IMG/VR virus record: IMGVR_UViG_3300009506_000029
Location: 1 to 61,018 of that record
Direction: 5' to 3' (one strand)
Origin: a virus
Taxonomy: Duplodnaviria; Caudoviricetes
DNA length: 61,018 nt
Shown piece after piece: positions 20,231 to 58,200 of the stretch. Within the stretch, counting starts at the first letter, position 1, and each line of letters begins with the position of its first letter. A model generated the notes under the pieces. The model saw only the letters and a list, made by a program, of their open reading frames with translations, did not search any database and was not told the DNA's origin. Both the position numbers and the translations under genes were made by a program.

Positions 20231-20239
20231 AACACAAAT

Positions 20240-20327: not shown

Positions 20328-20377
20328 AGTGAGCCACATAGGACTCGAACCTATAACCCGCTGATTAAGAGTCAGCT
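20328..20377 (-). other. attP: attP core: 3' half of tRNA-Lys(CTT)
   Basis: Reverse complement AGCTGACTCTTAATCAGCGGGTTATAGGTTCGAGTCCTATGTGGCTCAC gives anticodon arm (CTT), T arm and 3' acceptor strand; no 5' half; abuts the integrase stop. Confidence 0.88.
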
Positions 20378-21323
20378 ACTCACTTAACACCTCGATCGCC
20401 GGCGAGTACCGCGCGTGCTGCGCAGCGACCTCTGCGTCTCGGAAGCCCAGGTATACCCGCGTCGTCTCGCTCGACTGGTGCCCCAGGATGCGCCGCAACG
20501 TCTCCACGTCCCCGCCGTTCTGGATGTAGCCCTTGGCAAACGTGTGCCGCCAGATGTGACACAGCTTGCGTTTCATCGGCACGCCGGCCAGCACCACGCG
20601 CCGGCGCATCATCTGGTTGAGCCCGTTTGGCGTCAGCGGCTCGCACGTCAGCGCTCGGCCGCGCACAGCCACAAACACTGTGCGTGCACGCTCCGGCCGC
20701 ACCGTGATCCAGTCCTGGACCAGGACCATCGCCGGCACGCTCACCGGCACGATTCGATCCGCGTGGCTCTTGGACCACTCCGCCCGCACGCGCACCGCGC
20801 CGTGTTCGCCGTCCCACACTAGGCATCCCATTGGGCACGCGCACACCTCGCCCGCCCGCAGGCCTGTGTCGAGCATCAAGCCCACGATCGCCCGGTCGCG
20901 AATTCCCACCGGGCACGTATCACACGTGCCTAGGATCGCCCGCACCTCGTCCGGCGTCCAGGTATCTGGCAGCCGGCGCTCCACGCGCACGCGCCGCCGG
21001 TCGGCCATAGGGTTGACCTCGATCCAACCTTCGGCCACACAAAACGAGCCGAACGCCCGCAGCGCGCGATCGTACGCGGCGACAGTGGAACGCGAGATCT
21101 CACCCGCCTGGACGCGCCGGGCCAGGTGCGCGAAAAAGCGGCGCACCGCCCCGCGGTCCACGGCATCCATCCCCACCGCCCCGCCCACAAAGCGGACAAA
21201 GCCGCCCACGTGCGTGCGGTAAAAGCGGATCGATGCCGGCCGGAGCAGGTTCGACTCGCGGTCGAGCACGAACTCGTTGAAAGCATCCGCCAGTCTCATC
21301 TGGCGGCAGCCGAGAGCGGGCAA
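20376..21323 (-). CDS. int: Tyrosine integrase
   Basis: DTGLRAGE (R), K, HIWRH (HxxR), LGH, TRVY (Y); start may be ATG at 21299. Confidence 0.95.
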   Translation of the reverse strand: MPALGCRQMRLADAFNEFVLDRESNLLRPASIRFYRTHVGGFVRFVGGAVGMDAVDRGAVRRFFAHLARRVQAGEISRSTVAAYDRALRAFGSFCVAEGWIEVNPMADRRRVRVERRLPDTWTPDEVRAILGTCDTCPVGIRDRAIVGLMLDTGLRAGEVCACPMGCLVWDGEHGAVRVRAEWSKSHADRIVPVSVPAMVLVQDWITVRPERARTVFVAVRGRALTCEPLTPNGLNQMMRRRVVLAGVPMKRKLCHIWRHTFAKGYIQNGGDVETLRRILGHQSSETTRVYLGFRDAEVAAQHARYSPAIEVLSE

Positions 21324-27162: not shown

Positions 27163-27965
27163 CCACCCCCACCCGCTACGGCTGTATCTACCAGCCCGCC
27201 GGCCGTGCTGCTGAATACGCCCCCTGGGCGCTCAACCTCTATCGGGGCTGCGACCACGGTTGTGTTTACTGCTACGCGCCTTCGATTCTAAGGATGGATC
27301 GTAGCACGTTTCACGCCGCCGCCGCTCCGCGCAAGGACATCCTGCACAAGGTCGAGCAGGCTGCCCGCCTGGCCAGCGGCCACGTCGAGCGCGTCCTGCT
27401 TTCGTTCACCAGCGATCCCTACCAGCATCTGGACGCGCAGACCGGCATCACGCGCCAGGCGATCGAGATCCTCCACCGAAACGGCATCCAGGTCACCATC
27501 CTCACCAAGGGCGGCGCCCGCTCCATGCGCGACCTGGACCTGCTCGGCCCCGGCGACGCCTACGCCATCACCCTCGCCGTCCGTGAGGAGCGCCGCGCCG
27601 AATGGGAGCCCCACGCGGCCCCGATCGCCGAGCGCGTCCTCGTGCTCCAGGAGGCCTGCCGGCGCGGCCTCGAGACCTGGGTCTCGTTCGAGCCGGTCAT
27701 CTGGCCGCACGACACCTATGGTCTGTTTGTGCTCGTCCACGAGTGGATCACCCACTGCAAGGTTGGCCCGCTCAATTACGTCGGTCGACTGCCGGATCGC
27801 CTGAAAAGCCAGGTCCCTGCCCTCACCGACGCCGATTGGCGCACATTTGCCGAGATGTTCCAGCATTTCTGTCATCGCGTCAACGTGGAGTGCTACCTCA
27901 AGCAAGAGCTGCGGGACCGGATCGCGCAGGCTCCGCCGGACGATCCGAAAGTAATGAGATTATGA
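27159..27965 (+). CDS. Radical SAM protein (SplB/Rv2578c-like)
   Basis: NLYRGCDHGCVYCYA, SDPYQ, ILTK, SFEPVI. Confidence 0.88.
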   Translation: MTTPTRYGCIYQPAGRAAEYAPWALNLYRGCDHGCVYCYAPSILRMDRSTFHAAAAPRKDILHKVEQAARLASGHVERVLLSFTSDPYQHLDAQTGITRQAIEILHRNGIQVTILTKGGARSMRDLDLLGPGDAYAITLAVREERRAEWEPHAAPIAERVLVLQEACRRGLETWVSFEPVIWPHDTYGLFVLVHEWITHCKVGPLNYVGRLPDRLKSQVPALTDADWRTFAEMFQHFCHRVNVECYLKQELRDRIAQAPPDDPKVMRL

Positions 27966-29902: not shown

Positions 29903-30013
29903 AGTATACCATAATCTGTCTGTCTATGTCAATACATACCACGCGCCAATAGGGCCACTTTTCCCATCTGCACAAATTGCCTCTTGACAAGACATATCGA
30001 ACTATGGTACAAT
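29903..30013. promoter_or_regulatory. Divergent promoters (genetic switch region)
   Basis: Minus strand TTGACA(29932-29927)-N18-TATACT; plus strand TTGACA(29984-29989)-N18-TACAAT(30008-30013). Confidence 0.75.
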
Positions 30014-30165
30014 ACTATCGATGGGCCGATACATTTCCATCTAAAAAGAGAGGCCGGGTGCGCCAACACCCAGCCTCAGCGCCAAGAATCAAAACCAGTC
30101 ACAGTCAAGACCCTGGCAGCCACATGATACCACACCAGGCGGTCAGGGTCAAACAGGAGGACCCA

Positions 30166-30717
30166 ATGCTGACCACAGGCCAGCCGCTGACCGCCAATCA
30201 GCGCCAAAAGCTCACCGACTTGCAGCCGTATTTAAAGAGAATCGCGCACAACATCGTCGCCACGCACTACTCCGGCCAGGACCCCGACGACCTGCTCCAA
30301 ACGATGAACGCGGCCATCTGCGAACAAGCCGCCCGCGCCCCCGAGTTCCTGGACCAGACCCCCGGCTACATCACCCGCAAGGCCGCCTGGGCCGCCCGGG
30401 ACTACTGCCGGCACGAGCAGTACGGCCGCAACCTCGCGACCCTCAGCCTGGACGCTTCCGGTCCCGACGGCGACAGCTCGCTCGCCGAGGTCATCCCCGC
30501 CCCGCTCGCCGACCTCGATCTGCCGATCGACGTCGCCCGCGCCCTGGCCACGCTCAGCCAGAAGCGGCAACAGATCGTTGCGATGCTGGCCGCCGGCCTC
30601 CAGCGCAAAGAGATCGCCGCACACTTTGGGGTCAAATCGGCCACATTGGCGTGGGATTACCAGAAGATTCGGTCTGCACTACAGCCGGTCTACGCGGCCG
30701 TGCAGGCAGGGAGGTAG
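30166..30717 (+). CDS. Phage-encoded sigma70/ECF-like sigma factor
   Basis: Region 2 (DPDDLLQ...YITRKAAWAARDYCR) and region 4 (LATLSQKRQQIVAMLAAGLQRKEIAAHFGV); AGGAGG RBS before ATG at 30166. Confidence 0.82.
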   Translation: MLTTGQPLTANQRQKLTDLQPYLKRIAHNIVATHYSGQDPDDLLQTMNAAICEQAARAPEFLDQTPGYITRKAAWAARDYCRHEQYGRNLATLSLDASGPDGDSSLAEVIPAPLADLDLPIDVARALATLSQKRQQIVAMLAAGLQRKEIAAHFGVKSATLAWDYQKIRSALQPVYAAVQAGR

Positions 30718-32999: not shown

Positions 33000-33653
33000 A
33001 TGGCAACACTACGAGTCGCACAGATCAACCCATCGTCCTACGTCGACGGCCCCGGCCGGCGCGCCGTGCTCTACCTGGCCGGCTGCCCGATCCAGTGCCC
33101 AGGCTGCCAGTCCCGGCACCTGTGGCCAGAGGACAACGAGCCCGGTCACGCCGGGCTCGCGATGGACGTCGACGAGGTGGCCGCCAGGCTGCTCGACACC
33201 GGCCTGCCCGTAACGATCTCAGGCGGAGAACCCCTCGCGCAGGCCGCCGCGGTCGCCGAGCTGCTGATCGAGCTCAGGATCCAGCAGCCCGAGGTGCACA
33301 TCGTCGTCTACACCGGGTTCGTGGTCGAGGACATTCTCGACACGCTGACCCAAGCGACGCCCGAGATTGGGGTGATCCTCCAATTCGCCAACGTCCTGGT
33401 CGACGGCCCGTTCCAGCCCGAGGACGACCACGATTGGGTACAGTGGCGCGGGTCCCGCAACCAGCGCCCGATCGATCTACGCGCTACCTGGGCGCAAGCC
33501 TGGCGATTTCTCGCCCTGCTGGACTGGGACACGCCGACTCTGACGGTCACCACAGACGGCGATCTGGTTGGCGCGGCCGGTACGATGGCCGAGCTGTTTG
33601 AGCCGGAAGCCGTGACCCCCGCGCGAATGTGCGGCCAGACCAAACCTGTGTAG
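33000..33653 (+). CDS. NrdG-like radical SAM / 4Fe-4S activase-family protein
   Basis: VDGPGRRAVLYLAGCPIQCPGCQS, TISGGEPL, YTG, LVDGPF, RGSRNQR. Confidence 0.9.
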   Translation: MATLRVAQINPSSYVDGPGRRAVLYLAGCPIQCPGCQSRHLWPEDNEPGHAGLAMDVDEVAARLLDTGLPVTISGGEPLAQAAAVAELLIELRIQQPEVHIVVYTGFVVEDILDTLTQATPEIGVILQFANVLVDGPFQPEDDHDWVQWRGSRNQRPIDLRATWAQAWRFLALLDWDTPTLTVTTDGDLVGAAGTMAELFEPEAVTPARMCGQTKPV

Positions 33654-35653: not shown

Positions 35654-35845
35654 ATGGACGAAAGCGCCCGCAAGCGATTTGCTGACAAGTTCGGCCTGCC
35701 CTCAGGGCAGGTCCGAACGTTCGACGAGCTATCTGCTCACGAAAAGGAGGACGTGCGTCGCTGCTATTCCCTGCACAATGCACGCCTCTACGTCTACGCG
35801 GTCAAGGCCGCTGGCGGCCTGGTCGTGAAACGGTTCCGGTTGTAG
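35654..35845 (+). CDS. Small hypothetical protein
   Basis: AAGGA RBS. Confidence 0.55.
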   Translation: MDESARKRFADKFGLPSGQVRTFDELSAHEKEDVRRCYSLHNARLYVYAVKAAGGLVVKRFRL

Positions 35846-35887
35846 TCGTTCCGAGAATGTGGATACGCAGAAAGAAGCGGGGGTGAT

Positions 35888-36067
35888 ATGGTTGGGACGG
35901 TGGCGGCAGCACTGTTGGCCCTTTGGATCGTATTCAAGATGATCCAGATCGTGGTGGAATCTGTTGGGAACGGCTGTGCTGGCAGAATATGGGCTCTGCT
36001 TGCGATTGCATTTGGTAGTGCGCTTTTGATCGGGATAGCTTTCTTAGCGCAGGGCGTCAGGTGGTGA
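35888..36067 (+). CDS. Small two-TM protein (below the ORF-track cut-off)
   Basis: MVGTVAAALLALWIVFKMIQ...LAIAFGSALLIGIAFL; GGGGG RBS. Confidence 0.5.
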   Translation: MVGTVAAALLALWIVFKMIQIVVESVGNGCAGRIWALLAIAFGSALLIGIAFLAQGVRW

Positions 36068-36145
36068 TCCGATTGTGACCGAGCCAGCCGAACGGCCCGC
36101 GTCCAAACGTTCCCGCACGCGCGCGGCAATGTTGGAGGTATAAAC

Positions 36146-36463
36146 ATGCTCATTTGGAGCGTCAAGCCCAAGCTCGATCGCACAGTGAAATATCACCTCG
36201 CCCACGGTCTGCGCAGAGCCAGCGTGCGCACCTGGCACCTGGCTCTGCTGCTGGATATGTTGGACCGGTCCCGGCTTGATGCGGCTGTGCACGGGATGCT
36301 TAGACGAGACCTGGCAACAAAGATCGCAAGAGACGCCAGCCGTCTTGAGCACATTCGCCGTACGGCTCTGTCCGCTATTGCCAGATCCGCCGACACGGCC
36401 GATCTGCTCGATGCTTTGCGCCAGATCGCGGCCATAGCCGACCTCGACACTGATAAGCATTAG
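36146..36463 (+). CDS. Hypothetical protein
   Basis: GGAGGT RBS. Confidence 0.6.
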   Translation: MLIWSVKPKLDRTVKYHLAHGLRRASVRTWHLALLLDMLDRSRLDAAVHGMLRRDLATKIARDASRLEHIRRTALSAIARSADTADLLDALRQIAAIADLDTDKH

Positions 36464-40196: not shown

Positions 40197-40402
40197 CGAT
40201 CCGTGTGATGGTAATGCTGGTTGCACTTGGCGCGCTCTACCTGCTCCTCTTTCTTGGCCTGTGCGTGCTGCTCTACATCCTGGCCTACGGCCTGGCGCTG
40301 TGGTGTGTCCAGCAAGATACCGACCGCGCCGAGCGCGAGCTGGAGCAGCGCTTTGACCGCGACCTCGACGGCTGGATCGCCGAGTTGGGCGTCGAGGATT
40401 AG
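40193..40402 (+). CDS. Small TM protein
   Basis: GGAGG RBS; hydrophobic N-terminus. Confidence 0.55.
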   Translation: MTIRVMVMLVALGALYLLLFLGLCVLLYILAYGLALWCVQQDTDRAERELEQRFDRDLDGWIAELGVED

Positions 40403-40429
40403 ATTAGAATTATGATCCTAATGCAGATG
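40402..40429 (-). promoter_or_regulatory. 28-bp dispersed motif copy
   Basis: Reverse complement CATCTGCATTAGGATCATAATTCTAATC. Confidence 0.75.
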
Positions 40430-40440
40430 CGGAGGCGGTA

Positions 40441-40761
40441 ATGACGTTTGAGGAATGGTTGGAGACGGATACAGGTAAGACATTGCAGGCGTTACAGCAC
40501 AGTTGGTCGGGCATGGTGGAGGAGTTGCATACCGTGTTTGGCCAGTGGATGATGGAGACAACCCAGAAGCTGGTGCCAGCGATGCGTGGCCTGGCGGAGG
40601 CGTTTGAGCGGATGAAAGCCGAGACTCGCTCTTTTGCTTATGGCACATTGAGACGATACGGGGTACCGCACTGGATGGCACGGTTGGCAGCAAGGGCCAT
40701 GCCGTTTGATTTGGCGTGGCGATTGGCTGAGAAGGCGTCCGCTAGTAGGAGTAGACAATGA
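40441..40761 (+). CDS. Hypothetical protein
   Basis: GGAGG RBS. Confidence 0.65.
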   Translation: MTFEEWLETDTGKTLQALQHSWSGMVEELHTVFGQWMMETTQKLVPAMRGLAEAFERMKAETRSFAYGTLRRYGVPHWMARLAARAMPFDLAWRLAEKASASRSRQ

Positions 40762-41201
40762 ACAGAATGAGAATCAGCTTTGATCTTGATCGCTGGCTTG
40801 ACATTGTTCGCCAGGCATTCCCACAGGTGAACCGTGAACAAACCAAAGTCGTGTACGTGGATCAGATAGAATGTCGGTTCGCCGTGGTTCCGCCCGTACT
40901 GGTTACATCGGCCTATGATGAGGTGCGCCGCCGCCCAGGATGGCGCGCGCGGCTATTGCGCATCGGCGGCGAATTATTCGGCGTGCGCAAATGGTATGAT
41001 CGCGGAATGGCAATCAAGCACATACCAGAGATGTACTATCGCGAGCGCACGATTGAACTCCGCTCATTTGCTGGTCCTGCGAATGCGTGTGGTTTAGGCA
41101 TGCCAGGAGAGCAAGCTGTGATCTGTATGGGCTATGATGCCGAGACAGACACGCTTCTGGTCAACCGTGAGAGAACATACATCTATGGCGGCCTAATCTG
41201 A
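40758..41201 (+). CDS. Hypothetical protein
   Basis: AGGAG RBS; ATGA coupling. Confidence 0.65.
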   Translation: MNRMRISFDLDRWLDIVRQAFPQVNREQTKVVYVDQIECRFAVVPPVLVTSAYDEVRRRPGWRARLLRIGGELFGVRKWYDRGMAIKHIPEMYYRERTIELRSFAGPANACGLGMPGEQAVICMGYDAETDTLLVNRERTYIYGGLI

Positions 41202-41402
41202 TGAACACCACCGAACCGATCCAAGCTGTCACCGTGGGCTACTTTGTCGGCGACGAGCAGCCGACGTATGCAGAGATGGCCGCAGAAACGCCGCGTGCGT
41301 ATATGCGGGTGTGGTGCGCACGGAATGGGATTGAGGGGGAGAGGGAAGCGGCGTGATGGATTCCGCTAATGTGGACACGCGGCATAGCCGCAGAAAGGCA
41401 AA

Positions 41403-41648
41403 GTGATGGACGAGGAATTGCAAGTCAGGTTACACATTGAGGAAAGCAATGAGATTCGCTCTATCTCTATCAGCGCGAACATACTGTTTTTGCTCATCGA
41501 ATCCGGCACCAATGATCTGTATGCTGCGCAAGAGGTGGCTGAGCGAGAGGACCGTGGTCGAGCTATCCGCAACGGCCAGAACGTGATGGCATGGCTGAGG
41601 CCCATCGATCCCGGTGATGCAGAGATTTCAGATGCAGATCAGGATTAG
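41403..41648 (+). CDS. Hypothetical protein (cassette 1)
   Basis: Flanked by dif-like sites at 41360 and 41655. Confidence 0.55.
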   Translation: MMDEELQVRLHIEESNEIRSISISANILFLLIESGTNDLYAAQEVAEREDRGRAIRNGQNVMAWLRPIDPGDAEISDADQD

Positions 41649-41659
41649 CCAAGAGTTCC

Positions 41660-41690
41660 GATAAGTTGACTACTCGGCAGTAGTCAACGA
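41660..41690. repeat. 31-bp palindromic repeat, copy 1
   Basis: GATAAGTTGACTACTCGGCAGTAGTCAACGA, identical to 42344-42374. Confidence 0.9.
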
Positions 41691-41766
41691 TTGAACGAAT
41701 GATGCTCTTGTACGGTGCGGAACAGGATCGAGGCGGTTCCGCTAATGTGGATACTAGGAGGCGACG

Positions 41767-42345
41767 ATGACTAAAATATACGCCCAGTTGCCACCAAATG
41801 TGACGGATCCAGTGGAGACGCGTGCTTGCTATAGGCATCGGCGTGATGCTAGTCGAGATAGCTTTTTGGCGTTGCCCTGGCGATTGGAAGATATGGTTGG
41901 CTCAATCTGGCGAAACATCTGGACTGGTGGTGTCTTTGAATGTCAGCATGTAGATGTAGAAGATCCGGTGCATCGGCCAACAGAATCTGTAAAGATGCTT
42001 GGGACCTGGACGCACATTTCGCTCCAGTATCCTGGGTATCTTGGGCTGTGGTGGTCACCTGATCGCTATGTAATTGACTATGCTGCTCGAGTAGACCATT
42101 TGCCACCATTGGTCTCTCTGTCTTGGATGTATGTCGAGCTATTGCATGTGCGGGAGAACATTGCTCAACACGAAGCTGAGTTGGTGAGAGATGCGAATGT
42201 CTACAGGCAAAGGACGCTGGAGCGTGATCGGTCAGAGGAGAGTCTGCTGCTGGAATCGATCCAGCGATTCGCCGGCAAGCACGCTCTGCCTGTGAGAACT
42301 GATATTCTGAATCTTGGACACGTGGGCCAATTGGCTTTGTTCTGA
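41767..42345 (+). CDS. Hypothetical protein (cassette 2)
   Basis: AGGAGG RBS lies inside the left site and the stop codon inside the right site. Confidence 0.65.
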   Translation: MTKIYAQLPPNVTDPVETRACYRHRRDASRDSFLALPWRLEDMVGSIWRNIWTGGVFECQHVDVEDPVHRPTESVKMLGTWTHISLQYPGYLGLWWSPDRYVIDYAARVDHLPPLVSLSWMYVELLHVRENIAQHEAELVRDANVYRQRTLERDRSEESLLLESIQRFAGKHALPVRTDILNLGHVGQLALF

Positions 42346-42374
42346 TAAGTTGACTACTCGGCAGTAGTCAACGA
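42344..42374. repeat. 31-bp palindromic repeat, copy 2
   Basis: Identical to 41660-41690. Confidence 0.9.
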
Positions 42375-42517
42375 AACCGGCAGCGCGATACTCCAGGGTG
42401 GGGGAGGGCGCACCAGCACGCGAGACATATCTCTATGTCCGATAACAAACGTTACCGGACATAGACGAAACAGGCCGATACAGCCCTCCCCCACTGCCGG
42501 AAGCGCCAGATCAAAGG

Positions 42518-43009
42518 ATGGTTTCTGACGTGGTCAGCAACGTGCTCTTTAGCTCTAACGATCAAGGCCTTGAAACGCCCCAGTGGTTGTTTGATTTGTT
42601 GGACGCTGAATACAAGTTCACACTCGACGTCTGTGCAACGAAAAAAACCGCGAAGTGCTGGAACTACTATACTCCAGCCGATAACGGGCTTCGGCGTAGA
42701 TGGGAGGGTTCTGTTTGGTGCAATCCTCCCTACGGTCGAGATATTGGATTGTGGACCGCGCGCGCCGTCCACCAGATCCACTACAAGCGCCTCCAGAGAG
42801 CCGTGTTTCTTTTGCCTGTGCGGACTGATACCAGATGGTGGCACGATACAGTGATGCACGGCGCAAAAGTGCTACGGTTCATTGATGGGAGGCTGCGCTT
42901 TGTCGGCACAAAGGGCTCCGCGCCATTTCCCAGCGTGATCGTGGTCTATAGCCACGGCCTGTACCCGCTCCACATCGGGCCGTCTATCTCTGCACGCGGC
43001 CGGCATTAG
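42518..43009 (+). CDS. Phage DNA N6-adenine methyltransferase (phage Dam-type)
   Basis: ETPQWLF, FTLDVCA, NGL, WCNPPYG, LLPVRTDTRWW. Confidence 0.9.
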   Translation: MVSDVVSNVLFSSNDQGLETPQWLFDLLDAEYKFTLDVCATKKTAKCWNYYTPADNGLRRRWEGSVWCNPPYGRDIGLWTARAVHQIHYKRLQRAVFLLPVRTDTRWWHDTVMHGAKVLRFIDGRLRFVGTKGSAPFPSVIVVYSHGLYPLHIGPSISARGRH

Positions 43010-46808: not shown

Positions 46809-48994
46809 CAGTCATTCTCTTTCACGACCAACTGGCAGCGCCCGCTCTCGGGATCGTACTCGCGCCCCAGCACGCGCACCAGGTGATTGTAGCCGCCAAA
46901 TCCGTAACTATGCAGCCAGACCCGCACCGTATCGCCTACGTCATAGTCCGCAAACAATGCCGGCGCCTTGTCCAGCGCGCTCAGCGTCAAGATACTCTGC
47001 GGGTCTTTGTATTGGTCCACAAGTGTGTCCGAGATTGCCGTCAGCGCTGCCTGCTCTTCCAGATCACTGTGTGCCTCGTGCCCCTCGCGTCGCCCGTATG
47101 CCGCGATGCTCGCGCTATCGCTGTCTGTGCCTGTCAGCCTCTCGTCGCCCCAAGTGCTGCCGGCCCCGACTGCTGTCCAGACGTTCACGATTGGACCTTG
47201 CTCTGCTAGTTGCACGTCTACCGCGTTGTGCCCCTCGATCAATGCTGCGGCTGCCTTGGTGCTTCCCCGCTCTTGGTAAAAGTTCGCTGTAAAAACGATC
47301 GAACCTCCCGACTTTGACGCCACAATACAGTAGTCATAATCTGCCAGACGCTGGATGAGCAGGTCCTGCGTGATTTGCAGCAGATCGTCGTAGTGATAGG
47401 TTACCGCGAACGCTGACCCTCCTGTCCAGATTGTGCCCGCCGCAATTCCTGTGTCCTCGACTCCATTGGCATCTGCCAGCAACGTCTGAAAGATTGTGCC
47501 GGGTGTGCTACCGGTGAATTCCTTGGTCTTGCCTGTTCTGCGCGTGCCCAGAATGTACTCGCCCGAATAGGCCGTACATGTGATCGTGCCGTCTGCGTTC
47601 CATGTGCGTGGCACGTCGATCATCCCGCCCCAGTCCGGCAGCCCATTCTCAAACTGAAACAGCACTCGGTTCCCAAACCCAAGGTAATCCTCCGTCGCCT
47701 TGGCGTCGGATTGCGCGATCGTGAATTCTGCCCGGCCAATCGCGTTCAGTCTCCACGAGACCGGGCCAATGTCCACCTCCAGCTCTGCCAGCAGCCGCCC
47801 GGTTGTGTCGCCGACCAGGCAGCGCACTCCTGGTGCGACACTGATAGACGGCAGGTTGTTGCCGATCACAAACAGGAACGTCGGCGCAGTAATGGCCACC
47901 ACGCTCGTCGCCGTCGGGGCTACGGCCATCGAGCCGAGGACCACCGTCGGTGCAACCGTAGACGGGACCACGGTCAACGCGCTTGGCGTAACCGTCATCG
48001 ATCCCAAAACAGTGGTCGGCGCGACCACGCCCGTCACCACTGTCAGCGCGCTGGGCGTAACGGTCATCGATCCCAACACGGTAGTAGGTGCAATCGTCGA
48101 CGCTACCGCCGTGATGGCCGCTGGCGTCAACCAGAACCCACTCGCGATGCTTGGATTGACGACAGTCGCCACCGCGCTGATCGCGGCCGGCGCAACAGTC
48201 ATACTCCCCAGGACCGTCGTAGGCGCCACGCTGGCCATCACTGCGCTGATCGCCGTTGGCGTCACAGATACACTGCCCAGCACGACGGTAGGCGCTACCA
48301 CCGCAGCGACGACGGTCAGGGCGCTTGGAGCCACTGTAATCCCGGCCTCTCCGATCTCGTTCCCGTCGTCGTTGATGACAAACTCGTCCATAAAGAACGT
48401 GCCGGACGTCCCCGCGTCTAGCTGGTCCAGCCCGTACCAGATATAAGAGAGATCGTCGAACGCGTCGTAGACGTCTACGCCAGCCCAATCCTCCAGGCTC
48501 ACGCTGTCCAACCACACCTCAAACGTGCCATCGTTGGCTGCTGCGCCCGATGCCTGGACGCACTCGACCTCGACATAGTGTTCCGCGTCTGACACGGTGG
48601 TCACGTTCGTGTCCAATATGCCTGCGTCGTTATAGACTGCGGTCACGAGCTGATAGCCCGTGCCCGAGACATATTTGAGACGTAACGAGACCAGCAGCCA
48701 CGGCGCACCCGACAGCACGAGGTCGAGAAAATGAAACTCGTCATTGTTCGCCATCGTCAGCGTGTGGGGATGAAAGTAGGTCCGAAACCGCACGATACCA
48801 CTACCAGGCGCAGAGAGCCCCTCATACAGGTAGATGTCTGTCTGGTCGTCTATGTTGAACAGCAGCCCATACGCCGAGTCGCCCAGTGCCGCCGTATCGG
48901 AAACGGACAAATCCGTACCATCGACGTGCGAATCATCGTCCCAGCCTGCCGACCAGGCCCCGCTGTTAAAGTTGTCGCTGAAAATCTCGGCCAT
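46808..48994 (-). CDS. Baseplate hub / Tal-like protein with N-terminal ConA/LamG-like domain and ~23-aa repeats
   Basis: C-terminal SWRLNAIGRAEF...SIAAYGRREG...YDVGDTVRV; repeats of TVxPSAxTxV...VAPTTVLGS. Confidence 0.75.
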   Translation of the reverse strand: MAEIFSDNFNSGAWSAGWDDDSHVDGTDLSVSDTAALGDSAYGLLFNIDDQTDIYLYEGLSAPGSGIVRFRTYFHPHTLTMANNDEFHFLDLVLSGAPWLLVSLRLKYVSGTGYQLVTAVYNDAGILDTNVTTVSDAEHYVEVECVQASGAAANDGTFEVWLDSVSLEDWAGVDVYDAFDDLSYIWYGLDQLDAGTSGTFFMDEFVINDDGNEIGEAGITVAPSALTVVAAVVAPTVVLGSVSVTPTAISAVMASVAPTTVLGSMTVAPAAISAVATVVNPSIASGFWLTPAAITAVASTIAPTTVLGSMTVTPSALTVVTGVVAPTTVLGSMTVTPSALTVVPSTVAPTVVLGSMAVAPTATSVVAITAPTFLFVIGNNLPSISVAPGVRCLVGDTTGRLLAELEVDIGPVSWRLNAIGRAEFTIAQSDAKATEDYLGFGNRVLFQFENGLPDWGGMIDVPRTWNADGTITCTAYSGEYILGTRRTGKTKEFTGSTPGTIFQTLLADANGVEDTGIAAGTIWTGGSAFAVTYHYDDLLQITQDLLIQRLADYDYCIVASKSGGSIVFTANFYQERGSTKAAAALIEGHNAVDVQLAEQGPIVNVWTAVGAGSTWGDERLTGTDSDSASIAAYGRREGHEAHSDLEEQAALTAISDTLVDQYKDPQSILTLSALDKAPALFADYDVGDTVRVWLHSYGFGGYNHLVRVLGREYDPESGRCQLVVKEND

Positions 48995-50827: not shown

Positions 50828-53070
50828 CAGTACACCCCGTCCAGCGTGCGCCAGATGCCACCCGAACAGTTGTAGGTCTCGACCTGGCCATCGCCATCAT
50901 AGTCGTACTGTACCTGGCTGGACTCGTAGGTCACGCTCACCCCAGCGCCCAGCAGCTCTGCTGTCTCGGCGCAGATGCGCGCTTCCAGCGGCCAGGGCCA
51001 AAGCGGCACCTCCCCGATCTCGCCTTCCACAGACTGGTAGAGCACCAGCGCGCCGATATCTGATATCACTTGCGATCCTAACAGATATGCTCCGTTGCCA
51101 TACTGATCGGTTTGGTAGCCTGGATCGATCTGCGTCTCATTTGTCCCGGCCTGCGTTCCGCTGTACAGTGTGTCCACGTCCCAGAAGTTGTTATCGTGAT
51201 GGTCCAGGCTGACATTGATCTCGCTGTAGTCGGCCACTGCCAGCCCCGTACTTGCATCCACGATGGACGAGTTCGTCAGACTGCCGACGATGTCAAACCA
51301 GGGGTTGCTGCCGTCGTGGCTTACTCTGTATGCCGCCTGGTGATGCACGAGCGTGAGGTGATCTGCTGTGAAAGCGTCGTCCGCGCGCTGAAAAACGCCG
51401 CTGTAGGGAGTGCCGTATCCCTGACCGGTCTCGTTCCCGATCAGCACCGTGTTCTGGACGCTGTTCTCGTGTAGCTGCTGATTTGCCGAGATGACATTCA
51501 GACCATGATAGTCGTAGCCCACAAGCACACTTCCAATGAGCGCGTTCCGGTCCACTCTGTCCGTGTCCCGGTTCCAGGTCGCGTACCAATATTGTCCGGC
51601 GTCGACATAGATGTCTGACGGCGCGCGTGCGCCGACAAAGTTCTCGAGCAGCGTGTCTGCGCTGCCGTACACTTGAAACATGTCGGCGCCCTGCAGCGTT
51701 CCATTGGTCACGTAGCGCCCGAAAAACCGTCTTGCCGTAACCCGATCGCTCTCGTACACCAGTAGAGGGTTCCTGCCTCGTCCGGTCGCCGCGCAATCCT
51801 CCAGCAGAACATCTTGCACCCGGTAGATCTCTACGATGTGATCCGAGTAGTCTGGCCCGGCCTCATAAGCTGTCACGCGATCCATGACGACGTCGCTCGA
51901 TCCGTTGATAGATACCACCATGTCCTGGCTGTGGTGGCAGGTCACCCCTCGCAGCGTCACGTTTGAGGCTCCCGACAAGCTGCACGTCGGACATAGGCCG
52001 CTCGAGCACGGCTCCAGCCTTCCGTCAAATCGCGCGCCGCCATCCGTCTCCGAGACGATCTCTAGCGGAGCGCTCGCGCTGCACGATGCTGAGATCAATA
52101 GCCGCGCATAGGTTCCGTCTGGGATCGCGATCTGCTGCCCGCAGTAGGACGATCCAATCTCGATCACGCTGCCAGGTGACGGCGTAATCGTCGGGAACGG
52201 CGTTGCTGTAGGCTGCGCCGTTGCCGTCGGCGTACTGGTCGCAGTGGGTATTGCCGTCGCCGTTTGTGTCGCCGTTGGCGTGTTTGTCGGCTCTGGCGTG
52301 TTGGTCGACGTCGGCGCCGGCGTCGACGTCGGCACTCCCTCGACCGCTACGATCCGCACCGCATCCGCGACCACCCCCCGCTCTCCTGTCTCGCAGTCAT
52401 CCGACACGTATACTGTGCCGAGCCCCTCGAATGCCCATACACCCAGCAGATTCCACTGCCCGCCGTTCAGCGTCTGGTCCACGCGCACCGTCGTCTCTCC
52501 GCCTGCGTGAATCACCGTGTACGGCACATCATGCGGTCTCCAGCTTGACGCAAACCACCACGCATACACCTCATACGTGCCCGAGGGCACCTCGAACGTC
52601 CACCCCGCCCGATCCGATCCGCCACCCAGCATCACGTTTGATCGATGATTCGGTCCCCATAACTGCTCGTGCGGCTCTCCGCCGTTGTCCCACAAGATCC
52701 AGTCATCCTGCCCCACCTCGACAAACCAGCCCGGCGAGGTGTCATTGTCGAGGACCATGTCTATCGGTTCCTGTGTTGGCGTACTGGTCACTGTCGGCGT
52801 GCTTGTTGGCACTGGCGTACTCGTTGCCGTCGGCGTGTTCGTTGGCACAGGCGTACTGGTCACTGTCGGCGTGCTCGTCGGCGCCACCGTGCTCGTCTCC
52901 GTCGGCGCCACCGTCGCCGTCGGCTCGCACGGCACGCACGTCGCACACTGTACGGCCACGCTCTCCCCTGGCAGCAGCACGATAGCCGGCGCCTGGGCCA
53001 CTACCAACCATAATCCGCCCATCGCCAACAGGATCGCTGCGCCGATCGCCGCCTGTTTTACTCGCTTCAT
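50827..53070 (-). CDS. Secreted modular protein: Thr/Pro linkers, golvesin/Xly CBD-like domain, right-handed beta-helix
   Basis: Signal peptide; TATPT repeats; YEVYAWW...RVDQ..NGGQWNLLG...VVADAVR; pectate-lyase-like repeats. Confidence 0.8.
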   Translation of the reverse strand: MKRVKQAAIGAAILLAMGGLWLVVAQAPAIVLLPGESVAVQCATCVPCEPTATVAPTETSTVAPTSTPTVTSTPVPTNTPTATSTPVPTSTPTVTSTPTQEPIDMVLDNDTSPGWFVEVGQDDWILWDNGGEPHEQLWGPNHRSNVMLGGGSDRAGWTFEVPSGTYEVYAWWFASSWRPHDVPYTVIHAGGETTVRVDQTLNGGQWNLLGVWAFEGLGTVYVSDDCETGERGVVADAVRIVAVEGVPTSTPAPTSTNTPEPTNTPTATQTATAIPTATSTPTATAQPTATPFPTITPSPGSVIEIGSSYCGQQIAIPDGTYARLLISASCSASAPLEIVSETDGGARFDGRLEPCSSGLCPTCSLSGASNVTLRGVTCHHSQDMVVSINGSSDVVMDRVTAYEAGPDYSDHIVEIYRVQDVLLEDCAATGRGRNPLLVYESDRVTARRFFGRYVTNGTLQGADMFQVYGSADTLLENFVGARAPSDIYVDAGQYWYATWNRDTDRVDRNALIGSVLVGYDYHGLNVISANQQLHENSVQNTVLIGNETGQGYGTPYSGVFQRADDAFTADHLTLVHHQAAYRVSHDGSNPWFDIVGSLTNSSIVDASTGLAVADYSEINVSLDHHDNNFWDVDTLYSGTQAGTNETQIDPGYQTDQYGNGAYLLGSQVISDIGALVLYQSVEGEIGEVPLWPWPLEARICAETAELLGAGVSVTYESSQVQYDYDGDGQVETYNCSGGIWRTLDGVY

Positions 53071-55231: not shown

Positions 55232-58200
55232 CTATACCGTCAGCGCCTGCAGTTGGTAGAGCAAGTCGTCGGCCCGCCGTACCCCGTTCAGCACCAGGTC
55301 GCCGTGGATGTGCAGCTCTGTCCCTCGATCGATCGTCGTCGTACTGCCGCCGGCGCGTAGGTGCGCCAGTTCTGCCAGGCGGCCGGTGAACAATCGCTCC
55401 ACATCTGCCATGCCGCGCTCCAGGCCCACACCAACGCCCTCGGCCATCGGGCGCCCGATCTCGCGCTCCGTCGCCCGGCTCGGCGACCCCGCGTCGATCG
55501 CGTCTCGCGCGGCCTGCATCGCAACCAGCACCGCCCGTTGCAGTGTCCAAGCCAGTGCCCCTTGTCGCTGCCAGACCCCGCGGATCATTCCGTCGATGAA
55601 CGACTGTCCCAGGCTCTCCCATCCCCCCATCCTCAAGATCGAACTCTGGATCGATCGCAGCGTGCCTATCATCTCGCGGTACATCTCGATCAGCCCTGCC
55701 ACCGTCGCGTCGATCGCCGCGTCCCACATCTGCTGGGTCCACGTCACAAACCAATGTCGGAACTCGCTCCACAGCCGCGTCACATCTCGAATGAACGCGC
55801 CAATGGCTTCCGTAGCATCATCCGTCTCGCGCCGCGTAATATCCACCACCGCGTCCCACATTTGCTCTGTCCAGGTCACCATCCAGTGCCTGAACTCGCT
55901 CCAGGCCTGCGTGGACTGGCGCACCAGCTCGTCGATCTCGCCCGTGAATCCCTCCCGTGCCCCGCGCGCAGTCTCCTCGACTTTTTGTCGCAGGTCTGGC
56001 TGCGCCTGTCGCTGGATCGCCTCCCCGATCTTCCAGAACGAGTCCACCGTCTCAGCTATGTTCTCATTCGTAACACGGCGCAGCTCCGTCGAGTATCCGT
56101 CGTCCATTTCCCGCACCACGTTCTCTGCCACTCGCCGCAAGTCCGGCTGCGCCTGTCGCCGTACCAGCTCGCCGATCTCCCAAAACGAGCGCGCTGTCTG
56201 TGCGACCATTCGCGGCGTCTGGTGCTGCATCTCCTCCGTCATGCCCTCGCCCACGCCCTCGGCGATAGGCACGCCGATCTGCTCTCGTGCTACAGTGGAC
56301 GGCGAGTGAATGCCCATCGCGTTGCGCGCCGCCTGGATCGCGTTGCGCACCGCGTTCGCCGCTCGGTCTGCCAATGCCCGCGCTCTGCTCATAATTCCGC
56401 TTGCGACTCCATCGATCATCGCCCGCCCCACACCGCCCCAGTCCGGTGCTCTAAACGCGCTCAGCACGTTCTGGATCGCTGTGCGAATGTTTGTCAGCAC
56501 TGTCTCGAGCGCGGATCTGATCACGGCCTGAATCGCCGTCCACGCCTGCGACAGCAGCGTCCGCACCGTCTCCCACGCCTGCCGCCACTGCTGCTGTACC
56601 GTCGAGAGCCACTGTTGCAACTGGGCGCGTAACGTGTTCCAAGCTGCTACCAGCACCCGCGATATCTCTGCCCATACCTGTGACAAAAACGTCGACACCG
56701 CCGTCCACGCTGTCTGCCACTGCTGCAAGATAGAGGCCAGCCACGTTGTGATCTGTGTCAAGATCGCAACCAACGCCGACTCGATCGCCGGCCTGATAAG
56801 CTGTTCCCATACGTCCCGCACAAACTCGTAGATCAGCGTCCAGATCTCTTGGAACGAGGCCAGAATCGCCCGCAGGTCCTCCCCGATCAGCGCGTCAATC
56901 GCGCCCAGCACCGTCGTGATCGTCGTCTGGATCGTGTTCCAGATCCCTGTCACAAACTCTGACACTGCCGTCCAGATTGTGGTGAACGTCGTCTGGATGG
57001 CCGTCATGGCCGTGGTAATCGCTGCGCTCACGGTTGTCAGCGCTGTCTGGATCGCCGCCTGGATGTTCGTCCATGCCGTCTGGATCGCCGTCAAGATAGC
57101 CTGCCACGCTAGCTCTACGATCTGGCGAGCGAGATCCCAGTTTGCTTGCCACATGGCCGTGACCTGCGCCCAAGTCGTACCGAAAAACCCCGCGATCCAG
57201 TTCAAAAATGCCAGCGCGATCTCTTGTACCCCTGCAATCGCGTTCTGGACGATGGATTGCAGCGTTTCCCACGCGCCGGCCCAGTCTCCTGCTACCATCT
57301 GCAAAAAGAGCGTCCCCATACTGAGCGCTGTGTCAAGAAAGAGTTGCAGGATTGGCTGCACTACCTGCCACATCGCGCCGATCTGCTCGGACACGTATCC
57401 CCACACCTCGCCGATCACCCGCACATAGTTCTCGATCAGCGGCCCGTTTGCCTCGAACCACGCCGCGATCTGGTCCAGCGCGTTCTGTACAAATGGCACC
57501 ACGTTTGCGGCCAGGTCGGCCAGCACCTCGCGAAACCGATCAAAGAGCGTTGCCGCCGTCTCGCGAATCGCCGGGCCGTACTGTGCCCACCACGCCCCCA
57601 TCCGCTCGAGAAAGCCCTGGAACGTCTGCACCACTGGCCCGAGCATCTGGAGTCCGCCGCCCAGTCCATCTATCCAGCCCGTGATCATATCAGCCATTTG
57701 GGAGCCGAATAGCTGTTCGAGAGTAAAGTACAAGCCCTCTATCAGTGCTGACGTGTCTCCGCCGAATGCCATCATTAGCGCATTGGCTAGGGGTTCCAGT
57801 GCCGAAACGATGTTCGAGAACGCCTCGGCGATTGCCGGCCCATAGCGGTCTACCATCTCCGCCGCCCAGCTCGCGAAACTGGTCAGCACCGGCAGCAACG
57901 CCTCCCCCAGCGTGATCTTGAGCGTCTCGATCGTGCCCTCGAGCGCCTCCATTTGCCCGGCAAACGTCGCACCTTTTGCCGCTGCTTGCTCCTGAATGCC
58001 AGCCGCATTGGCTGTGGCCTCGGCCATCGCGTTCCAGCCCTCTACGCCCTCGCCTAGCAAGGTCTGGAGAGCCTTCATACCATAGGTGCCCGCGATAGTC
58101 TGGACGTACTGGTTTCTTTGCTCCTCCGTGAGATTGCGCGTAACAGGGATCAATCCGCCCTGCGCCTCTTCGAGCGTCTTGATGACATCGGCTGAGTTGC

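Follow-up and report, generated by a model that had tools for sequence, protein, structure and literature searches.

A short junction site at accessory-gene boundaries in three mosaic phages: recombination site or control site?

The gain and loss of small accessory genes in phage variable regions is largely unexplained, and many of these genes act in defence or counter-defence. Juhala and Hendrix reportedly described the morons of lambdoid phages in 2000. In integrons, a long imperfect palindrome (attC) lies behind each cassette and differs between cassettes. Integron cassettes have also been reported in phages (PMC9892861). The PeSLs (promoter-early stem-loops) of T4-type phages are described as conserved regulatory cassettes that flank ORFans in hyperplastic regions, with recombination between copies and mini-circles (PMC2839356), and have been proposed, and partly shown, to be crossover points at which ORFans are added, deleted or swapped, possibly via small circles (PMC2839356; PMC4122927). 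Outside T4-type phages, the literature searched ties no conserved boundary element to such turnover. The dif site is defined as two arms with a 6-bp spacer between them (PMC2958812). An account of Xer sites describes the inner TTAT as decisive for XerC/D binding and cutting and a common central region as needed for exchange between partner sites; its passages on Acinetobacter report that xrs cassettes formed no excisable modules (PMC11705084).

The window analysed here is a stretch of 61,018 nucleotides that represents the entire 61-kb genome of an uncultured temperate phage with a 144-bp terminal repeat. This phage also encodes a ParM-like partition gene. An earlier note on the sequence described two single-gene cassettes bracketed by dif-like sites and proposed an integron-like gene-capture array. 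The five sequences it listed sit where it placed them, and each gene indeed has the same left motif and a near-identical right block. The following genes are found around these sequences.

35840..36454, + strand, block present in the window and absent from the related phage G011: site L3, a 59-aa gene and a 105-aa gene
41406..41648, + strand, cassette gene 1: 80 aa from the ATG at 41406, no family, GC3 0.58
41767..42345, + strand, cassette gene 2: 192 aa, GC3 0.51
42518..43009, + strand, Dam-type N6-adenine DNA methyltransferase, the final gene of the rightward operon

The two cassette genes are unrelated (BLASTP E 22), as the note had held. The first could alternatively start at a GTG (41403), and the second belongs to an unnamed family of ~200 aa, which two other proteins carry as a fusion behind N6 DNA methylase domains. 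A protein atlas contained no usable match for either cassette protein. Their GC3 (0.58 and 0.51) contrasts with 0.73-0.85 in the conserved early genes, which agrees with the view of the cassettes as lower in GC, but the low-GC stretch spans ~40200 to 42900 and is thus wider than both genes. Foreign composition is a general feature of the genes behind these sites in the window and G011, where GC3 is 0.51-0.70, compared with 0.73-0.85 in the shared early genes. The block at 35840-36454 carries a membrane-like 59-aa gene (35888-36067, GC3 0.60) and the 105-aa gene (36146-36463). The Dam gene has no promoter-like motif of its own.

The left and right motifs belong to one group. L3, L1, L2, R1 and R2 are copies of a single 25-nt junction-site (J site) family and align without gaps. 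The consensus is TTCCGMTAA, six variable bases and TACKCGGMA, and its arms are partly inverted copies of each other.

35848..35872, + strand, L3: GTTCCGAGAA TGTGGA TACGCAGAA, 26.8 bits with the arms-only profile
41360..41384, + strand, L1: ATTCCGCTAA TGTGGA CACGCGGCA, beginning 3 nt past the stop of a 51-aa gene
41655..41690, + strand, R1: J site 41655-41679, GTTCCGATAA GTTGAC TACTCGGCA, plus an extra arm, with a perfect hairpin at 41665-41688
41691..41735, + strand, spacer between R1 and L2: 45 nt, with neither a repeat nor a sigma-70-like promoter
41736..41760, + strand, L2: GTTCCGCTAA TGTGGA TACTAGGAG, the start codon lying 6 nt beyond its end
42339..42374, + strand, R2: J site 42339-42363 plus a hairpin at 42349-42372

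The left motif TTCCGCTAATGTGGA occurs as exact copies at 41361 and 41737, and 17 of 18 bases are alike between 41361-41378 and 41737-41754. Another small gene has a third copy, with two mismatches, upstream of it at 35849. Taken by itself, the 10-mer GTTCCGMTAA shows no genome-wide enrichment, with six matches at up to one mismatch versus 3.5 expected (14 of 100 shuffles reach six); four of the six fall in this 1.1 kb. An arms-only profile built from four sites of G011 ranks the five window sites first (28.1-19.1 bits), with the next best window match at 12.7 bits and a maximum of 18.2 over 100 shuffles. Conversely, a profile of the five window sites finds six matches of at least 19.2 bits in G011, versus 0.02 expected. 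L1 and L2 share 15 of 16 bases of left arm and centre, and 4 of 9 in the right arm.

All nine sites of the window and G011 overlap the stop codon of the upstream gene or begin no more than 6 nt after it, all are oriented with transcription, and seven end 6-24 nt before the next start codon. L3, for instance, has its first base 2 nt past the stop of a 63-aa gene, and 15 nt separate its end from the start codon of the 59-aa gene. The ribosome-binding site and stop codon of cassette 2 had been placed within the sites; the stop TGA (42343-42345) does lie inside R2, and the ribosome-binding site AGGAGG (41756-41761) overlaps the right arm of L2. Dyad complementarity about the centre extends to 45 of 90 arm positions in these nine sites (slid controls 16-30) and to 41 of 60 in the six sites of a third phage, G012 (slid controls 10-26). 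The inner end of the left arm reads ATAA, CTAA or GAA. That of the right arm reads TACT, TACG or CACG at the nine window and G011 sites and TAAT, TACT, TAAC or AACT in G012, and TTAT occurs in none.

The centres fall into classes that are kept across phages, TGTGGA at four sites and GTTGAC at three. Sites of one class stand in direct order in the window (L3, L1 and L2 with TGTGGA; R1 and R2 with GTTGAC), and the L and R sites around one gene share only two of six centre bases. In the L class, the most conserved stretch is the centre itself, AATGTGGAYAC. It matches a DnaA box at 8 of 9 bases, but such matches are not enriched (7 versus 4.9 expected), and this candidate was rejected. A sigma-70 scan found nothing usable in or before the J sites and no conserved -35; by our reading, L1 and L2 contain a -10-like GCTAAT that lacks the key A.

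R1 and R2 are larger than the other sites and agree in 35 of 36 nt. Their exact part of 31 nt is the sole 31-mer repeated in the genome outside the terminal repeat, and the 24-nt core occurs twice versus never in 100 shuffles. Each block consists of GTTCYGATAA followed by a perfect 10-bp hairpin, GTTGACTACT-CGGC-AGTAGTCAAC, which the earlier note had overlooked. The hairpins fold as RNA with z scores of -3.3 and -2.6 and have no T run; canonical terminators with a GC stem and T run occur elsewhere in this phage. Such a stem-loop is present at only two of the nine window and G011 sites. The extension AGTAGTCAAC is common to R1 and R2 and missing from G011 sites c and d, so we conclude from the sequence comparison that R1 and R2 are recent copies of each other, and their identity stops sharply at both edges. 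A possible R remnant directly upstream of L3 was rejected as not significant, with 155 of 500 shuffles scoring as high.

To the right, the variable region is anchored by a structured element upstream of the methylase gene.

42379..42501, + strand, structured element: -50.1 kcal/mol, z -6.2

Its outer stem (42398-42409/42483-42494) encloses a palindrome at 42432-42465 with 15-nt arms that are 93% complementary, and is extended by CCGGCAG/CTGCCGG (42379-42385/42495-42501, read by eye). The element is kept in G011 with compensatory changes, upstream of a different methylase gene, and Rfam gave no match over 41200-42600. The palindrome, nested in this larger structure, is part of a separate conserved element that is distinct from the J family. 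The sequence at 42436, once counted as a third site, is not a family member, since its TCCGATAA is not kept in G011. Further conserved intergenic control motifs precede unrelated genes in this genome, namely a promoter-like family with four copies and palindromes that G011 retains at syntenic positions; shared control boxes are thus a habit of this phage.

Comparison with G011 places the sites in a region of complete gene turnover. G011 encodes early proteins up to 84% identical to those of the window phage; at the corresponding genome position, its four J sites stand between accessory genes that are wholly unlike. From RusA to the structured element, the stretch in which the J-site clusters lie, the window and G011 have no gene in common, whereas 22 window proteins match G011 outside it. 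G012 shares only ~8 proteins with the window phage, several of which are missing from G011, and has six J sites. One small conserved early protein, of 101 aa (25164-25469), is common to all three phages. These point both ways relative to rough gene calls, and all six centres differ from one another. The same motif between quite different accessory genes in related phages identifies it as a marker of cassette boundaries, which may be either a recombination site or a control site.

One gain or loss separates the window phage from G011. The 615-bp block at 35840-36454 is in the window and not in G011; the 63-aa gene and the AAA ATPase gene that flank it lie 88 nt apart in L068. The earlier note had suggested comparing related phages for gain or loss exactly at the sites, and the left edge of the block does lie 8 nt before L3. 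However, neither the right edge (-4.9 bits) nor the empty locus (4.7 bits) has a J site, so this event was not a site-by-site exchange. Several junctions between variable genes, in both variable regions, have no J site.

Searches beyond the three phages returned little. The exact hairpin and the degenerate left motif each had no match in viral contigs. The hairpin with a free loop matched two metagenome contigs and one genome contig, in AT-rich unrelated contexts that lack the core, and we regard these as chance. No close relatives were found in viral contigs via the 147-aa flank gene, gene 2, A1 or A2. Cultured phages gave no DNA match and no tblastn match for the gene 2, 147-aa or 433-aa proteins, and tblastn with 17 cassette and flank proteins of the window phage and G011 gave no non-self match in all DNA examined. 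Public contigs encode homologues of gene 2 (P0001, 44%, 4650 nt), of gene 1 (P0005 and P0006, 80% and 75%, 752 and 925 nt) and of the 147-aa flank gene (P0002 and P0003, 99% and 69%, 5480 and 4896 nt); a further homologue is P0010 (1261 nt). TerL is <60% identical to that of cultured phages (42% for the best among the matches listed). It has relatives at 58 loci with up to 68% identity, and Dam and RusA were each found in none of five long contigs of these relatives, which indicates that they share only packaging genes.

Our preferred reading, held tentatively and with less than even confidence, is that the J site is a protein-binding junction box carried by moron-like units and that it also acts as a crossover patch in the manner of PeSLs. 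A DNA-binding protein encoded by phage or host, sequence-specific and probably dimeric, may bind the site. It would occupy the short gap between a stop codon and the next ribosome-binding site, ahead of accessory units that comprise one to three genes of foreign composition, and would travel as the head of such units. A 5-bp stem with a 12-nt loop would be weak as RNA (by estimate rather than computation), which favours recognition as DNA. The same 25-36 bp stand in one orientation at many junctions of the window phage and G011 and could thus also be patches for general recombination, at which units are swapped, added or deleted. At 25-36 bp, such patches would be towards the short end of what homologous recombination uses, which counts against this reading.

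The duplicated R block is best explained by one recent event, in which a circle or misaligned partner that brought the spacer, L2 and gene 2 recombined inside R, so that a copy of R now stands on either side. A single crossover of this kind is favoured by the lineage-specific hairpin extension and the 35/36 identity. Protein binding, a regulatory role and recombination at the J sites are suggested by these sequence patterns, and several observations count against the junction-box reading. R1 and R2 have no gene following them, and a role as gene head alone does not explain them. A dimeric regulator is not expected to constrain the centre, as a recombinase or promoter would, yet the centres form discrete classes. 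There is also no evident promoter at the sites, the G012 sites occur in both orientations and the 615-bp indel is one-sided.

The sites could alternatively serve control only, as operators, stoperator-like roadblocks or transcription-factor sites before accessory genes, with a turnover that is unrelated and due to illegitimate or flank-homology recombination. We give this a minor share of our belief. It would account for the placement of seven of nine sites just ahead of a start codon, the orientation of all nine with transcription, the peak of L-class conservation at the centre and the strong retention of the site across phages while its surroundings change. The many siteless junctions in both variable regions and the one-sided indel at L3 are likewise in its favour, as are mycobacteriophage stoperators, described as asymmetric, placed in short intergenic spaces and oriented with transcription (PMC9283540). 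That account gives >20 genome-wide sites for the L5 repressor (PMC9283540), however, and here there are five, at accessory units only. R1 and R2 lie behind genes with none after them, and their identity, which includes the loop and the lineage-specific extension, exceeds the needs of binding and points to a recent copy event. Nor is a common phage-encoded regulator obvious, given how few proteins G012 shares with the window phage and that several of these are absent from G011.

A further possibility, which we consider unlikely, is that J sites are tyrosine-recombinase core sites for host Xer or a small Xer-like phage enzyme, which would bind the arms and use the 6-bp centre as the overlap region. 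Units bounded by sites with the same centre would leave as circles and integrate into matching sites of other phages, in an integron- or pdif-like way. The geometry is that of the published dif definition (PMC2958812), with partly inverted arms of 9-10 bp around exactly 6 bp, and to this extent the sites are dif-like as the earlier note proposed; but their right arm reads TACT or TACG and lacks the inner TTAT that Xer sites keep (PMC11705084). The centre classes common to several phages, with same-class sites in direct order, fit a recombinase well. So do L1 and L2, which are alike in left arm and centre and differ in the right arm, as expected from exchange at the centre with different cassettes. 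Further support comes from ORFs that enter the left arm and stop inside the site, from the sharp edges of the R block and from the six different centres of G012, which would prevent self-rearrangement.

As the enzyme, the earlier note proposed host XerC or the tyrosine recombinase of the phage.

20376..21323, - strand, only tyrosine recombinase of the phage

Its best family matches are XerC, XerA and XerD, which speaks for the recombinase reading, but it scores far below every Xer cut-off (120 versus 335 bits). Two integron-integrase models, with cut-offs of 265 and 435 bits, score it at 52 and 41. No evidence links the enzyme to the J sites: it lies 21 kb away beside a tRNA-Lys-like site (20330-20393) that is unlike them (0.07-0.89 of random windows score as well). 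A likeness of L, R or P sites to this tRNA-like site was rejected as not significant, and tRNA-like sites adjoining the recombinase genes of G011 and G012 were not found. A search of the phage for a second recombinase found no resolvase and no Y1 transposase.

The arrangement of the sites poses further difficulties for a recombinase. Sites stand at accessory-gene boundaries and enclose different genes in G011, as a gene-capture array would have it, but the L and R centres differ, so that L and R should not recombine with each other under tyrosine-recombinase rules. Exchange between L3 and L1 would delete 5.5 kb that include the AAA ATPase and RusA. The L3 indel has no partner site, its empty locus is siteless and the G012 sites run in both orientations. 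The Acinetobacter xrs cassettes, on the published description, are not excisable modules either (PMC11705084).

Recombinant joints were sought in Logan contigs as the read evidence, in which holes in cover (over 40416-41618 in run X2 and elsewhere) carry no meaning. Neither an L1xL2 nor an R1xR2 joint is listed for these contigs, although such joints may exist all the same, and contig breaks at 41689 and 42345 are the response of the assembler to the repeated 31-mer. The sole joint near the cassette, from 41770 to 42340 in one contig, is an ambiguous hint of a cassette 2 variant. Its two sides have no letters in common, and it is not centre-to-centre, which weakens the case for a recombinase.

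The boldest form of this idea is that the temperate-phage lineage runs a lox/dif-like cassette exchange, with J sites as cores of an Xer-type recombinase of host or phage and centres as compatibility classes. We think this improbable. If true, phages would capture, stack and trade accessory genes of the anti-restriction type in the form of small circles, by means of an integron analogue native to phages that uses neither integron integrase nor attC.

A plain moron layout, with the left motif as promoter, the right hairpin as terminator and the likeness of L and R due to chance, would suit the upstream motif, downstream stem-loop and deviating composition of each gene in a temperate phage, but it is very improbable given that L has no sigma-70-like promoter, the hairpins have no T run, unlike the canonical terminators of this phage, the hairpin arm is missing from the G011 sites, L and R belong to one family in three phages, and strong termination at R2 would deprive the Dam gene, itself without a promoter-like motif, of transcription.

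Three phages from environmental samples, mosaic in other respects, have a short, well-defined site in common at their accessory-gene junctions. It is laid out like a recombinase site or a dimer-binding site, which provides a concrete, testable handle, and J sites could be used to find cassette boundaries in metagenomic phages. Should the site be only a control box, it would still be a new regulatory motif of phages, tying unrelated morons to a single regulator.

Among known systems, PeSLs resemble the J sites as short conserved intergenic repeats in a hyperplastic region, where the flanked ORFans differ between relatives. However, a PeSL is ~100 bp long with a strong sigma-70-like promoter and a terminator stem-loop, whereas the J site measures 25 bp, has dyad arms around a 6-bp centre and lacks a recognisable promoter; only two copies have a stem-loop. 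PeSL phages are T4-type and the J phage is temperate and siphovirus-like; recombination is partly shown for PeSLs and inferred for J sites. Morons are similar in that single genes or small gene sets of deviating composition sit between genes that are neighbours in a relative. The block at 35840-36454 fits this pattern, with flanking genes 88 nt apart in L068. GC3 is 0.51-0.68 versus 0.73-0.85. Classical morons bring their own promoter and terminator, whereas here unrelated units have one conserved head motif.

The dif, pdif and xrs sites are alike in their partly inverted arms, 6-bp centre and left inner ATAA/CTAA (PMC11705084; PMC2958812), and pdif and xrs sites, as described, also flank accessory genes at several positions per replicon and have centre compatibility classes (PMC11705084). 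The J sites differ in that the right inner TTAT is missing, the symmetry lies in outer rather than inner arm positions, the arms measure 9-10 bp instead of 11 bp and pairs are direct, whereas pdif pairs are mostly inverted. Stoperators likewise are conserved sites in very short intergenic spaces that overlap gene ends and have a transcription-linked orientation, as do the sites of the window and G011, but they are described as 13-bp asymmetric monomer sites with >20 copies genome-wide (PMC9283540), and the J site has five copies, a dyad and a place at accessory units, with mixed orientation in G012 by rough gene calls. Finally, the array is reminiscent of integrons in its uniform orientation and in promoterless-looking single genes that each end in a recombination-like site, with an L-type site at the head and R-type sites after it, much like attI and then attC. 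There is no integron integrase (52 bits at best versus 265), the J sites are 25 bp compared with the long folded attC, and R1 and R2, in contrast to attC sites, are near-identical (35/36).

All of the sequences that the earlier note listed between 41360 and 42465 are present there in the window. At 41361 and 41737 the left motif agrees exactly for 15 nt, and at 17 of 18 bases when 18 nt are compared; a third copy with two mismatches lies at 35848, ahead of another small low-GC3 gene. The right block, 36 nt long, starts at 41655 and again at 42339, and the two copies differ at one base; its exact 31 nt are the sole repeated 31-mer in the genome outside the terminal repeat. It comprises a core of 10 nt and, behind it, a perfect hairpin (10-bp stem, 4-nt loop) that the earlier note overlooked. 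The two bracketed genes, gene 1 (41406-41648) and gene 2 (41767-42345), are unrelated to each other on comparison, as had been claimed, and neither has a Pfam or PHROG family. Their GC3 is 0.58 and 0.51, respectively, compared to 0.73-0.85 for conserved early genes. A mini-ORF of 23 codons (ATGATG..., 41699-41770, plus strand) crosses the left site of gene 2 (L2) and terminates in an ATGA that overlaps the gene 2 start; its last base, 41770, is also the base of a contig joint in the source run.

The left sites (L1-L3) and right sites (R1, R2) align without gaps over about 25 nt as [G/A]TTCCGMTAA, six bases and TACKCGGMA; we refer to them as J sites. The L-R likeness is modest within the window genome alone. 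A 26-nt L2 query retrieves R1 (18/26) as its best non-L match in the genome, with a background maximum of 16, and a 30-nt R1 query finds L2 and L3 at 18/30, not above the background maximum of 19. The decisive support for a single L/R family comes from other phages.

Most searches for relatives came back empty. The 433-aa early protein led to one viral contig of 79,955 nt (G011) that is collinear with the window across the early region and matches 25 of the 71 queried window proteins. Identities reach 80% for the 433-aa protein, 84% for the AAA ATPase, 78% for RusA, 73% for the sigma-like protein and 55% for the recombinase; the structural genes mostly differ. Beyond RusA and the end of a short conserved gene, the two phages have nothing in common up to a conserved structured element before a methylase gene. 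The window encodes proteins of 106, 147, 51, 80 and 192 aa in this variable stretch. In G011 it holds the gene for a C5 cytosine methylase along with seven small ones (A-G), of which a single one matches ASCH, weakly, and the rest are unnamed. The G011 stretch contains four J sites on the coding strand.

J sites in the variable stretch of G011
Site a, after the methylase: GCTCCTATAA TGTGGA TACGCGGAA
Site b, between genes A and B: GCGCCGCTAA GAAAGA TACTCAGAA
Site c, between genes B and C: ATTCCGATAA GTAGAA TACTCGGCG
Site d, between genes D and E: GATCCGATAA GTTGAC TACTCGGAA

Cross-genome profiles were built from the arms alone, ignoring the centre, with 100 shuffles as control. The profile of the five window sites gives six G011 matches at 19.2-27.4 bits, where shuffle maxima average 14.3 and a mean of 0.02 matches reach 19. 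Conversely, the profile of the four G011 sites places the five window sites on top (19.1-28.1 bits; next match 12.7, largest shuffle 18.2). At 39465 and 79351 on the minus strand, G011 has two additional, less certain candidates, one of which may fall within an ORF.

At 61,018 bp, the window covers an entire IMG/VR virus record, which has a direct terminal repeat of 144 bp; its DNA occurs in runs from marine sediment metagenomes. The sequence looks like that of a temperate tailed phage, and no close cultured phage was found. The minus strand encodes packaging and lysogeny genes (large terminase, SPP1-type portal, Mu-F-like protein, tyrosine recombinase). A long rightward operon (~21.5-43.0 kb) includes a ParM/actin-like partition gene, a replication initiator (HTH and DnaA_N), radical-SAM genes, a sigma-like protein, an AAA ATPase, RusA and, last, a Dam methylase.

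Features of the window discussed in the text
20330-20393, minus strand: tRNA-like stretch, Rfam tRNA at 29.4 bits (borderline, gathering score 29), abutting the 3' end of the recombinase gene
21547-22554, plus strand: ParM/ALP actin-like partition ATPase (Pfam ALP_N, MreB-like_C; PHROG partition protein)
22556-22792, plus strand: 78-aa gene, next after the ParM-like gene
27159-27965 and 33000-33653, plus strand: two radical-SAM-type genes, both conserved in G011, the second with Fer4_12
23669, 32937, 36473 and 38110, plus strand: promoter-like family TCTCTAAyTTy ... CGTTATA, each 12-20 nt ahead of RBS/start codon
42379-42501 (20364-20480 in locus L068 of G011): structured element of ~120 nt, a long G-rich/C-rich outer stem around a hairpin with 15-bp arms
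55232-59182, minus strand: 1316-aa protein, part of it common with G012, a third phage

The ParM-like gene together with the recombinase suggests a plasmid-prophage lifestyle or the use of actin-like filaments. Three to four tandem iterons of ~22 nt each, resembling CCCCCCATGAATCCCAGTTCAT, lie at 26151-26235 within the initiator gene (25775-26929) and are likely the origin of replication. The radical-SAM-type genes may act in DNA base modification; the Fer4_12 domain of the second is as in 7-carboxy-7-deazaguanine synthase-like enzymes. Large minus-strand genes with in-frame tandem repeats (7555-8650, 47897-48298 and 52229-52925; periods 18, 69 and 132 nt) presumably encode tail or fibre proteins.

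Gene 1 has two homologues (80% and 75%), and gene 2 has one close homologue in a set of 5.8 billion proteins (44%, with the first six and the last residues alike). The 192-aa protein of gene 2 defines a family, for which a profile search recovered 93 cluster representatives at E <=0.001. Among the ten longer matches scanned of these 93, two (P0020 and P0054) carry the gene 2 domain fused behind N6 DNA methylase-type domains. Given these fusions, the Dam methylase in the window and the two methylases in G011, gene 2 would fit a DNA-modification or anti-restriction neighbourhood.

A profile scan of 707,589 bases from loci other than those of the window and G011 returned three matches of at least 19 bits, all within locus L052. 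The whole contig (G012) is 42,587 nt long with terminal repeats. Allowing up to two mismatches, TCCGMTAA-N6-WAMTCGG matches it six times, against once for the backwards-read control. All six are intergenic by our own gene calls, which are rough for both G011 and G012; they have six different centres and mixed orientation relative to genes. This brings the firm J sites to 15 in three phages. G012 has only 8 of the 71 queried window proteins: terminase, portal, Mu-F, a distant recombinase (27%), the ParM-like protein and its 78-aa neighbour (52% and 65%, both absent from G011), a 101-aa protein and part of the 1316-aa protein. As so few proteins are common, we conclude that the site predates any single gene module or moves more freely, and its reader would be either a host protein or one of the very few common phage proteins.

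Placement is regular in the window and G011. At all nine sites the orientation is the reading direction of the genes, and the upstream stop codon lies no more than 6 nt before the site start or inside the site (gene 2; G011 genes A, B and D). The next start codon follows 6-24 nt beyond the site end at seven of the nine. The exceptions are R1 and R2, where an extra arm, AGTAGTCAAC, makes the hairpin and no gene lies directly behind. G011 sites c and d have the right arm of R1/R2, and d also the same centre, neither with the extra hairpin arm. Genes behind sites have a GC3 of 0.51-0.70 versus 0.73-0.85 and are compositionally foreign in both phages.

The arms have partial dyad symmetry about the middle of the 6-bp centre. 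Complementary positions number 45 of 90 over these nine sites, against 16-30 in slid controls, and 41 of 60 in G012, against 10-26. Folded as RNA, the site would form a 5-bp stem closed by a 12-nt loop, which we judge, rather than compute, to be too weak to matter; the simplest reading is thus a site read as DNA by a putative dimer. On indirect arguments, we tentatively favor a control box with a second role as crossover patch.

A control box and nothing else is rather unlikely. Placement speaks for it too, and it would leave the turnover of the site-rich stretch to other causes.

A sigma-70 promoter scan ruled out the J sites as promoters of that type. The promoter-like family (TCTCTAAT... 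CGTTATA, four copies, each ahead of an RBS and start) differs from J sites and may be read by the phage sigma-like protein (29977-30717); two copies have a common 18-nt leader (32976 and 38150), and the family is kept in G011 ahead of the AAA ATPase gene. Canonical TTGACT-N17-TATACT promoters also occur. The R1/R2 hairpins lack the T run of the phage's clear terminators, and if R2 were a strong terminator, the Dam gene would be cut off. AT-richer GATTC/GAATC-type palindromes occupy intergenic gaps at 17221, 19894, 31507, 33758 and, partly, 40395. Two are kept at syntenic junctions in G011, adjoining promoter-like sequences, and so look like operators; their half-site loosely resembles a J-site arm, yet the palindromes score below 11 bits with the J profile.

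A true recombinase site is slightly less probable again. The earlier note had called the sites Xer/dif-like, and the layout agrees with this, as dif is defined in PMC2958812 by two arms and a 6-bp spacer. According to PMC11705084, XerC/D binding and cutting are set by the inner ATAA-centre-TTAT. J sites match this on the left only; the right arm starts TACT or TACG. Centres fall into TGTGGA (L1, L2, L3, a), GTTGAC (R1, R2, d) and two singletons. The L and R sites bracketing one gene differ at four of six centre bases. Tyrosine-recombinase rules would allow only like-with-like exchange, and an L3 x L1 exchange would then remove essential-looking genes. The phage has one tyrosine recombinase, with best family matches to XerC, XerA and XerD far under cut-offs; no resolvase or Y1 transposase was found in it. 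The tRNA-like stretch, whose anticodon loop reads Lys-CTT by eye, is the probable attP and bears no significant likeness to J sites; no such stretch was found beside the G011 or G012 recombinase gene. A clear terminator (GC-stem and T-run, ~20228-20270) follows the tRNA-like stretch of the window. J sites are absent from the vicinity of the recombinase gene in both the window and G011; in G012 one lies 218 nt upstream of that gene.

Gain or loss of cassettes exactly at the sites, which the earlier note proposed to look for in related phages, is seen in part. The whole site-rich stretch is turned over between the window and G011. Block 35840-36454 (L3 and two genes), whose left edge is 8 nt ahead of L3, is missing from G011, where a 63-aa gene and the AAA ATPase gene lie 88 nt apart. 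Against a clean exchange from site to site, there is no site at the right edge of the block (-4.9 bits) or at the empty G011 locus (4.7 bits), and several junctions in both variable stretches have no J site.

R1 and R2 agree at 35 of 36 bases, including the loop and the hairpin arm that is missing from the relative's sites, and the identity ends abruptly on both sides. We infer that they are recent copies of each other. The simplest route would be a crossover within R between the genome and a circle or misaligned partner bearing spacer, L2, gene 2 and R, which would leave R on both sides of the insert. Homology (31-36 nt) or a recombinase could have driven it; the data fit either.

Read-level evidence is from Logan contigs, which drop rare forms. 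Source-run contigs break at 41689 and 42345, as expected from the repeated 31-mer. One source-run contig connects 41770, just past the gene 2 ATG, to 42340, the second base of R2, with a shorter side of 20 letters and zero common letters at the joint; a variant in which L2 and R2 enclose a different gene body, or none, may lie behind it. A 354-nt sister-run contig aligns to 41736-42078 with 42 differences and begins at the first base of L2, so a diverged cassette 2 allele with the same left site exists. A 210-nt contig of another study is identical to 41312-41521, spanning L1. No L1-to-L2 or R1-to-R2 joint occurs among these contig joints.

The palindrome at 42432-42465, counted as a third site by the earlier note, falls outside the J family; its half-site TCCGATAA is TCTTATAA in G011. 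It is nested in a larger fold (42390-42500; -50.1 kcal/mol, z -6.2, equalled by 0 of 200 shuffles), and G011 has the same design in the same place (-41.2 kcal/mol, z -3.9). The methylase genes directly downstream belong to different families in the two phages. Both have identical sequence in the outer part of the hairpin, and 5 of 23 predicted pairs are kept via compensatory, two-sided changes. Judging from these sequences, the palindrome belongs to a distinct conserved element that anchors the variable stretch on its right side. This element has no Rfam match; methylase expression could depend on it as a regulatory RNA or as a cruciform that binds protein.

Keyword searches without supplements turned up no account of dyad 9-6-9 junction sites where accessory genes meet in temperate phages, which is short of proof that none exists. 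Integron cassettes, which PMC9892861 reports from phages too, are alike in part of their features and fail in others, and so are morons, pdif/xrs modules and stoperators (PMC9283540). The nearest known system (PMC2839356 and PMC4122927) is the PeSL of T4-type phages, which has the same role in a hyperplastic region but differs in anatomy and in the kind of phage.
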